Shown here: piece after piece, positions 15,776-15,823 of the stretch
Layout: the number at the start of each line of letters is the position of its first letter
Numbering within the stretch: the stretch's first letter is position 1
Source of the DNA: Escherichia coli
Lineage (GTDB): Bacteria > Pseudomonadota > Gammaproteobacteria > Enterobacterales > Enterobacteriaceae
DNA: 64,000 nucleotides
Direction: 5' to 3' (one strand)
NCBI RefSeq assembly: GCF_003018255.1
Contig: NZ_CP027440.1
Program-made: the position numbers and the translations under genes
Notes under the pieces: generated by a model
Database searches by the model: none
What the model saw: the letters and a program-made list of their open reading frames with translations, nothing else
What the model was told of the DNA's origin: nothing

Positions 15776-15823
15776 TGCACCTTAAAACGTGCATTAAGCG
15801 CACAGTGCCTGTTTTAAGGTGCA
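15776..15823 (-). terminator. 13-bp perfect inverted repeat (TGCACCTTAAAAC / GTTTTAAGGTGCA) with T-rich tail on the minus strand; terminator or operator upstream of topB
   Basis: Arms at 15776-15788 and 15811-15823; minus strand reads hairpin then ATTTTTACC; sits between stop of upstream gene (15883) and topB start (15691). Confidence 0.35.

Follow-up and report, generated by a model that had tools for sequence, protein, structure and literature searches.

A conserved palindrome upstream of topB in an Escherichia coli ICE, a likely solitary copy of a hipBA-type operator

Type II antitoxins usually autorepress by occluding their own promoter or start region, and the cargo hot spots of ICEs carry toxin-antitoxin or abortive-infection modules, for example in the variable hot spots of the SXT/R391 elements. 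HipB binds cooperatively to four TATCC-N8-GGATA sites in the hipBA promoter of E. coli K-12, where HipA acts as a co-repressor (PMC3920265), and HipB autorepression (PMC3920265, PMC8262856) is the reference for the model of an arm-bound repressor that is put forward below. Sites of another kind are known from ICEclc: BisD loads on inverted repeats in and next to inrR, with bisS sites in inrR and ssb, and competence promoters carry weak inverted repeats as sites for BisC (PMC12409273).

The locus described here resembles each of these systems in part. The window, a stretch of 64,000 nucleotides (64 kb) that was analysed as a whole, comes from an E. coli chromosome with an ICE of the PFGI-1/SPI-7/ICEclc class, and a perfect inverted repeat lies there between the genes for a DUF3158 protein and topoisomerase III. 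As with bisS/parS of ICEclc, the inverted repeat is near an inrR homologue in an ICEclc-class element; unlike these sites it is non-contiguous, present in single copy, absent from some relatives and tied to hipBA outside ICEs. The hipBA loci that carry the same unit share with K-12 hipBA the palindromes overlapping the hipB-hipA promoter, an Xre/Cro-type HTH antitoxin and several copies per locus, and the half unit can also be read in a 5-N8-5 form (TGCAC-N8-GTGCA). However, the window repeat has no TATCC or GGATA and is unrelated in sequence to the K-12 operators, its contiguous arms of 11-13 nt are 22 bp apart, copies are also found at the 3′ end of hipA, and no hipBA stands beside the window copy. 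As in the SXT/R391 hot spots, the gap between DUF3158 and topB differs in content among close relatives, with hipBA, hipB on its own, abiEi/abiEii or other ORFs; here, in contrast, the junctions of one cargo are copies of its own promoter palindrome, and a single copy is found in the empty sites. On balance we consider it likely that the window repeat is a solo, orphan copy of a composite palindrome of about 48 bp, part of a hipBA-like type II toxin-antitoxin cassette and not of the ICE core.

The repeat and its conservation among related ICEs

The record NZ_AP045067 is 100% identical to the window over a 401-bp query spanning the repeat, and a related element is present in 41 of 5,426 complete E. 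coli genomes. The local genes are all on the minus strand and encode an AlpA-like HTH protein, a ParB-like protein, a DUF2857 protein, a member of the STY4528 family, a PFL_4669 protein (Pfam AcaB), the DUF3158 protein and TopB. A homologue of the DUF3158 protein is named 'Integrase regulator R' in one database source. The features around the repeat are given below; IR1 and IR3 are copies of the repeat in hipBA-carrying relatives, whose positions are given further on.

13886-15691, minus strand: topB (DNA topoisomerase III), downstream border of the cargo hot spot; annotated as a pseudogene (internal stop) in the identical E. coli record
15692-15766, minus strand: topB leader with the CCAGTTTCCCCTGTC box and a putative anti-SD/SD hairpin at 15699-15714; on insertion of hipBA or abiE in relatives it remains next to topB (IR3 side)
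15767-15775 (plus-strand coordinates), minus strand: T-run ATTTTTACC, 3′ of the minus-strand hairpin; topB-side flank, common to the IR3 copies of relatives
15776-15788, strand unassigned: outer arm TGCACCTTAAAAC, corresponding to the arm that bears the predicted -10 (TAAAAT) of hipB promoters; TAAAAC in the window
15789-15810, strand unassigned: variable 22-bp centre with a nested near-palindrome at 15789-15803; CACTA and TTAATGC (minus-strand reading) are kept across copies
15811-15823, strand unassigned: outer arm GTTTTAAGGTGCA; at hipB promoters the equivalent arm gives the Shine-Dalgarno sequence AAGGTG, 3-5 nt before the hipB ATG
15824-15882, minus strand: ICE-specific flank from the DUF3158 stop to the repeat; stays with DUF3158 (IR1 side) in hipBA-carrying relatives
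15883-16308, minus strand: DUF3158 family gene (InrR homologue), last of the alpA-parB-DUF2857-STY4528-PFL_4669-DUF3158 block; upstream border of the cargo hot spot

The first-pass annotation had described a perfect 13-bp inverted repeat with a nested palindrome, located between ICE genes upstream of topB and provided with a T-rich tail on the minus strand, and all of this is indeed found in the sequence. The two arms pair perfectly over 13 nt, in the order TGCACCTTAAAAC-GTGCATTAAGCGCACAGTGCCT-GTTTTAAGGTGCA across 15776-15823, and reach 18 nt at 89% identity when extended in a repeat search; the near-palindrome GTGC-ATTAAGC-GCAC is nested in the centre, and ATTTTTACC follows the hairpin on the minus strand. 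The repeat is located in a 191-bp gap, 59 nt past the DUF3158 stop codon, and 84 nt separate it from the start codon of topB (15691, minus strand). No other perfect 13-nt inverted repeat with a gap of at most 30 nt occurs in the whole 64 kb; the chance expectation is 0.035 per window, and 3% of 200 windows simulated with a first-order Markov model have one. Within the window, no further copy of an arm was found beyond chance. The minus-strand RNA of the repeat folds into a stable hairpin with -22.2 kcal/mol (z = -4.6), a value matched by none of 200 shuffles, and the plus-strand RNA with -25.1 kcal/mol (z = -4.0). A scan of positions 14000-18000 against Rfam (E ≤ 1) gave nothing at or near 15776-15823, and a literature search with the arm sequence returned unrelated primers only.

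For the comparison among related ICEs, DUF3158-topB regions were gathered without reference to the repeat. The set comprised five E. coli variants, two contigs from genomes or metagenomes, and further contigs whose DUF3158 proteins are 54-91% identical; a search of plasmids with the DUF3158 protein gave no match, its alignment to genome contigs gave only two loci, both of close relatives, and a scan of viral contigs gave none. At the same intergenic position the arms are conserved, while the centre and flanks have diverged. The arm cores GCACCTTAAAA and TTTTAAGGTGC are essentially invariant, their start-to-start distance is always 35 bp, and the arms are unchanged between ICEs whose DUF3158 proteins are only 65-79% identical, with centres and flanks that diverged freely. 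The repeat is thus a real, non-random and conserved element. Mismatches in the arms are found in L006, the variant present in most E. coli carriers (two), in L007 and L003 (one each) and in L012 and L016 (one to three), and these changes are always uncompensated and break pairs. Among 18 independent copies, 8 of the 13 outer pairs are invariant and the others depart only by becoming unpaired; the covariation score was matched by 146 of 500 shuffles, and one double change was seen in 18 pairs × 18 copies. This pattern of essentially invariant arms and uncompensated changes is that of a DNA sequence read as such, typically by a protein, and not that of an RNA stem selected for pairing.

In the most distant relative (L009, 54% identity) the topB leader alone is kept; both the repeat and the flank on the DUF3158 side are absent. 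In solo copies of ICEs without hipBA, a hand count gave about 2 substitution events per 26 nt in the arms versus about 24 per 97 nt in centre and flanks. This slower change could reflect a residual function, either attenuation or binding of another protein, or a palindrome-templated correction.

hipBA cassettes and copies of the repeat

In several related ICEs (L014, L015 and L016, and from the metagenome scan L046 and L031) the genes hipB and hipA are inserted on the opposite strand between DUF3158 and topB. The cassette encodes a HipB of 113 aa, an Xre-type HTH protein (Pfam HTH_31/HTH_3), and a HipA of 446 aa, a HipA_C kinase. These ICEs hold two or three copies of the repeat, up to three within 1.9 kb, at the following positions:

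IR1, in hipBA-carrying ICEs: 2 nt past the hipA stop
IR2, in hipBA-carrying ICEs: 3-5 nt before the hipB ATG
IR3, in hipBA-carrying ICEs: about 60 bp beyond IR2, in front of the topB leader

In a pairwise alignment, window positions 15773-16400 match 2117-2744 of L046 and positions 15488-15822 match 1-335; the extra 1,781 bp of L046 consist of a spacer, IR2, hipB and hipA. The homologies from both sides, for L046 as well as for L015, overlap on the repeat only, the topB side ending at 15822-15824, and copies of the repeat are thus located exactly at the cassette junctions. From this overlap it follows that the window has one copy where the relatives have two border copies.

The gap (15692-15882) is a cargo hot spot in close relatives. 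Besides the complete cassette it holds hipB alone, with hipA deleted (L041), abiEi/abiEii (L061-63, L052) or another ORF of 201-211 aa with its own terminator (L012, L017). In the relatives with abiE or the other ORF, the repeat stays with the topB leader and is preceded by an 'ATGA...' remnant that resembles the start of hipB; in L017 the remnant reads MKHRQKALWPSW, compared with MKRIQQDLLPSD in HipB. Homologues of HipB and HipA are missing from the window and from 40 kb of the identical record (L001), and no copy of this hipBA cassette was found in the 5,426 complete E. coli genomes at blastn sensitivity, which is why the window copy is regarded as an orphan. A 291-bp hipA-like fragment that does occur in complete E. 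coli genomes was set aside as irrelevant, since it lies in an unrelated island with no repeat nearby. This fragment (L064, positions 3000-3290, from E. coli SF-173; similar in about 335 complete E. coli genomes) is an unannotated stretch of 98 codons, 58% identical to the cassette HipA, in a CP4-like island where it adjoins a partial HTH pseudogene and cbtA/yeeU.

Metagenome contigs were also scanned for both 11-nt arm cores with any centre of 22-26 nt, an exact-arm pattern that biases the loci found toward perfect arms. The scan returned ICE loci as well as hipBA loci without a nearby gene for DUF3158, an AcaB-like protein or TopB. At least three chromosomal sites outside ICEs carry hipBA together with the unit: gabD-gabT-GntR/SymE, TonB-dependent receptor/flavodoxin-like reductase, and DctM/GntR regulator. 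A copy directly after hipA is found in four of these chromosomal loci (L020, L038, L051, L023) and a second copy upstream in three (L021, L022, L032); several hipBA loci have no downstream copy. A solo copy is found at the gab/SymE site (L036, L050), where its flank is common to the hipA-side copy of the hipBA-carrying relatives; this is a second 'empty' site that keeps one repeat. The scan also returned fifteen gut-metagenome contigs (L024, L026-L028, L033, L035, L037, L040, L042, L045, L047, L048, L054, L057, L058) with the same two 11-nt arms and a different 22-nt centre, between a TATAAT promoter and the GAGGAGG-ATG of an uncharacterised ORF. These, with a TATAAT promoter of their own, and four singletons with unrelated centres are probably chance or unrelated palindromes and were treated as such.

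Upstream of hipB the layout is the same in 14 of 14 loci: a -35 hexamer, a spacer, a -10 hexamer inside one arm, a centre of about 30 nt, AAGGTG in the other arm, 3-5 nt, and the ATG. The -35 is TTGAAA and the -10 is TAAAAT in 13 of the 14, L051 having TTGGAA and TATAAT; the spacer is 17 nt, or 16 nt in three loci with a shifted arm. A promoter scan gave the hipB promoter 10 of 12 matches in one ICE locus and in one chromosomal locus. At IR2 of all 14 hipBA loci the palindrome thus overlaps the promoter of the toxin-antitoxin operon, and hipB transcription would start inside the repeat centre. The copies that are not at promoters (IR1, IR3 and the solo copies, that of the window included) mostly read TAAAAC on both strands and miss the critical last T of the -10. 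The window copy lacks a -35 and has TAAAAC as its -10-like hexamer, and the promoter scan called nothing there. Since C occupies the last -10 position on both strands, and neither a -35 nor a cognate HipB is present, the window copy is probably idle as operator and promoter. A TTTAAA-N16-TAAAAC arrangement toward topB, spotted by eye, was rejected as a confident promoter for the same final C.

These arrangements suggest a model in which the arms are half-sites (TGCACCTTAAAA) for HipB or the HipBA complex. Bound there, the protein would cover the -10 and the start-site region, which would result in autorepression. Two half-sites of 13 nt at a distance of 22 bp are unusual for a single HTH dimer; alternatively, one dimer could bind each 18-bp half unit, TGCAC-N8-nnGCA. 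The copies at the cassette ends may be auxiliary operators or repeats for gain and loss of the cassette. The window copy may then be the remnant of a collapse of the border copies (deletion IR1 × IR3) or, equivalently, an unoccupied site; insertion into a pre-existing repeat and a deletion scar would fit it in either direction. Any present effect of the window copy would be a side effect of hairpin and U-run, as a weak attenuator between DUF3158 and topB. An operator for an ICE regulator had also been suggested in the first-pass annotation. The operator kind of this proposal agrees with our model; the assignment to the ICE does not, since the unit is the core of a hipBA promoter, occurs outside ICEs and has no cognate HipB in the ICE.

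Deeper homologues allow a look at how arms and antitoxin change. A Serratia locus (HipB 56% identical) has a recognisable but asymmetric promoter unit (TGCACCTTAAAGT ... ATTATAAGGTTCA) and no flanking copy. In a Burkholderiales MAG (HipB 55% identical) both arms are changed alike (TGTAGCTTAAAAC ... GATTTAAGCCACA), CACTA and TTAATGC of the centre persist, and the predicted recognition helix of HipB is changed from RNTVSRIE to RETASRIE. In Polaromonas (HipB 39% identical) the helix has diverged further and the promoter palindromes are unrelated. We infer, from four lineages only, that the arms change jointly with the recognition helix in the homologues from Burkholderiales and Polaromonas; that both arms changed symmetrically would show, again within these four lineages, that the dyad symmetry itself is selected and tracks the antitoxin. 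HipB and HipA of the cassette belong to an uncharacterised Hip clade, only remotely related to the solved Hip proteins: the matches are weak ones to HipT/HipA_C structures, YjjJ and Y4mF-type antitoxins, with E-values of 1e-4 to 1e-3 to solved Hip proteins. The Polaromonas locus itself, on plasmid pPNAP01 of Polaromonas naphthalenivorans (L065), has its hipBA between direct repeats of about 135 bp (2244-2379 and 4240-4376; 82-94% identity) that include a terminator-like hairpin.

Alternative functions of the palindrome

The first-pass annotation had also proposed a terminator or attenuator. In that case the minus-strand hairpin with its 13-bp stem and the following AUUUUUACC would end or damp transcription of the alpA-parB...DUF3158 block before topB, and the ICE would have kept the repeat for this purpose. 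The repeat shares with intrinsic (Rho-independent) terminators a stable hairpin (-22.2 kcal/mol, z = -4.6) and a U-run located 3′ of a stop codon on the transcribed strand. The stem has a GC-rich base, a run of five U follows directly, the position 59 nt after the stop codon is the boundary where relatives insert cargo, and solo copies show fewer changes in their arms than around them. However, neither the pairing nor the U-run is kept throughout: no compensatory change was found in 18 copies, every arm change breaks pairs, the variant of most E. coli carriers has two mismatches and folds with only -14 to -15 kcal/mol, and IR3 of L015, the copy of L017 and all IR1 copies have no U-run behind them. 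With 22 nt the centre greatly exceeds the usual terminator loop, and the -ΔG per nucleotide is low; a terminator scan flagged only a 5-bp sub-hairpin. With a re-implemented formula of the d'Aubenton-Carafa type, used with ViennaRNA energies, the discriminant was negative both for the window (-31) and for the commonest E. coli variant (-45), versus +5 and +24 for two control terminators with a T-run from related loci (a third control, with its T-run on the other strand, gave -45). Moreover, the identical unit is also found at hipB promoters and outside ICEs. Hairpin and T-run of the proposal thus stand, whereas the absent covariation, the poorly conserved U-run and the negative discriminant speak against it, and we regard termination or attenuation as the selected function as rather unlikely.

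The exact junctions would also fit an att-like site of a mobile hipBA cassette, where a recombinase, or slippage promoted by the hairpin, would insert and excise it, the window being an unoccupied or resolved site. Indel junctions match the unit exactly in the ICE, as does one junction in a second chromosomal setting; the cassette sits tightly between the copies, with 2 nt left behind the hipA stop and 3-5 nt in front of the hipB ATG; hybrid copies with a remnant of the hipB start are found beside abiE or other cargo; and the distant hipBA of the Polaromonas plasmid is likewise flanked by direct repeats of about 135 bp. A dedicated site is nevertheless improbable in our view, as no recombinase gene adjoins hipBA in any locus, comparison by eye gave no convincing similarity to the consensus of dif/Xer, cer, psi or integron attC, several hipBA loci have no downstream copy, and homologous or slipped-strand recombination between 48-bp direct repeats would suffice for the junctions. 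That the palindrome is both things, the operator of HipB and the joint for precise gain and loss of the cassette in ICE hot spots and chromosomes, is doubtful too; if it were true, solo copies would be reusable landing pads or scars, and this would be a previously undescribed mobility of a toxin-antitoxin module. A site for a core regulator of the ICE, either a parS/bisS-like site for the ParB-like BisD homologue (18472-19779) or a site at which a BisC- or AcaB-type activator drives topB, is suggested by the inverted-repeat nature of the BisD and BisC sites in ICEclc (PMC12409273) and by the inrR homologue that the repeat adjoins. However, bisS/parS sites are contiguous palindromes (16 bp, or 11-n-11) and the repeat has a 22-bp centre; the ICE has no second copy, L009 and L010 have none at all despite keeping the genes for AlpA, the ParB-like protein, DUF2857 and DUF3158, and the unit accompanies hipBA at chromosomal sites without any ICE gene. 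A better bisS-like candidate, described below, lies inside the DUF3158 gene, and altogether we hold this assignment for very unlikely. An origin of transfer, or a hairpin that serves conjugation in single-strand initiation or as a promoter, might come to mind for a perfect hairpin-forming repeat in a conjugative element near genes for DNA processing (topB, replication-like proteins), but a copy number that varies between ICEs from none to three within 1.9 kb, the occurrence in non-conjugative chromosomal contexts and a stem too short for a folded -35/-10 promoter make this hardly credible.

Implications and flanking features

If the window repeat is the orphan palindrome of a hipBA-like cassette, a conspicuous ICE hairpin is re-assigned from terminator or operator of the ICE to a toxin-antitoxin regulatory element. 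This would avert a wrong annotation in 41 E. coli genomes and in the many elements of Enterobacterales that carry the repeat. In addition, the gap between DUF3158 and topB is now defined as a place where addiction and defence modules (hipBA, abiE) are inserted, and a testable promoter and operator model is at hand for an uncharacterised HipBA clade. It is tempting to use the filled, half-decayed and empty sites as a natural series for acquisition and purging of toxin-antitoxin modules in conjugative elements.

The candidate bisS-like site is a near-palindrome at 16237-16263, inside the DUF3158 gene, with the sequence CTTAAAGGCCTTT-a-AAAGGCCCTTTAG: its arms of 13 nt match at 11 of 13 positions and are separated by 1 nt. 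It overlaps the codons of the invariant LKGLLKAFKGKG motif and has no second copy in the window. It is a candidate because BisD of ICEclc loads on an 11-n-11 palindrome inside inrR; as a second copy of the repeat it was rejected, the sequence being different. A small perfect palindrome AGTGnCACT (AGTGACACT) is located at 15850-15858, just 3′ of the DUF3158 stop, with TTTAAA at 15833-15838. The AGTGnCACT palindrome is ICE-specific and kept in ICEs of the solo, hipBA and abiE types (TAGTGACACTTT in L012, TAGTGACACC in L061). The PFL_4669-family protein of the ICE (16298-16909) matches Pfam AcaB (PF08900), the family of the transfer activator of IncC plasmids, which hints at an AcaB-like activator in the regulatory block of this ICE.

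In this strain topB is interrupted, and an ORF of 465 aa (14294-15691) is followed by one of 135 aa (13886-14293); the gene is intact in relatives, with 600-608 aa. Within its leader, at 15699-15714 (minus strand CTCCCTTTCACCGGAG) and 7 nt before the topB ATG, the Shine-Dalgarno sequence GGAG of topB can pair with an upstream CTCC. In distant relatives the helix is longer and changed in sequence, CCTCC...GGAGG in L009 and ACCTCC...GGAGGT in L018, which suggests that a hairpin sequestering the Shine-Dalgarno sequence is conserved in front of topB.
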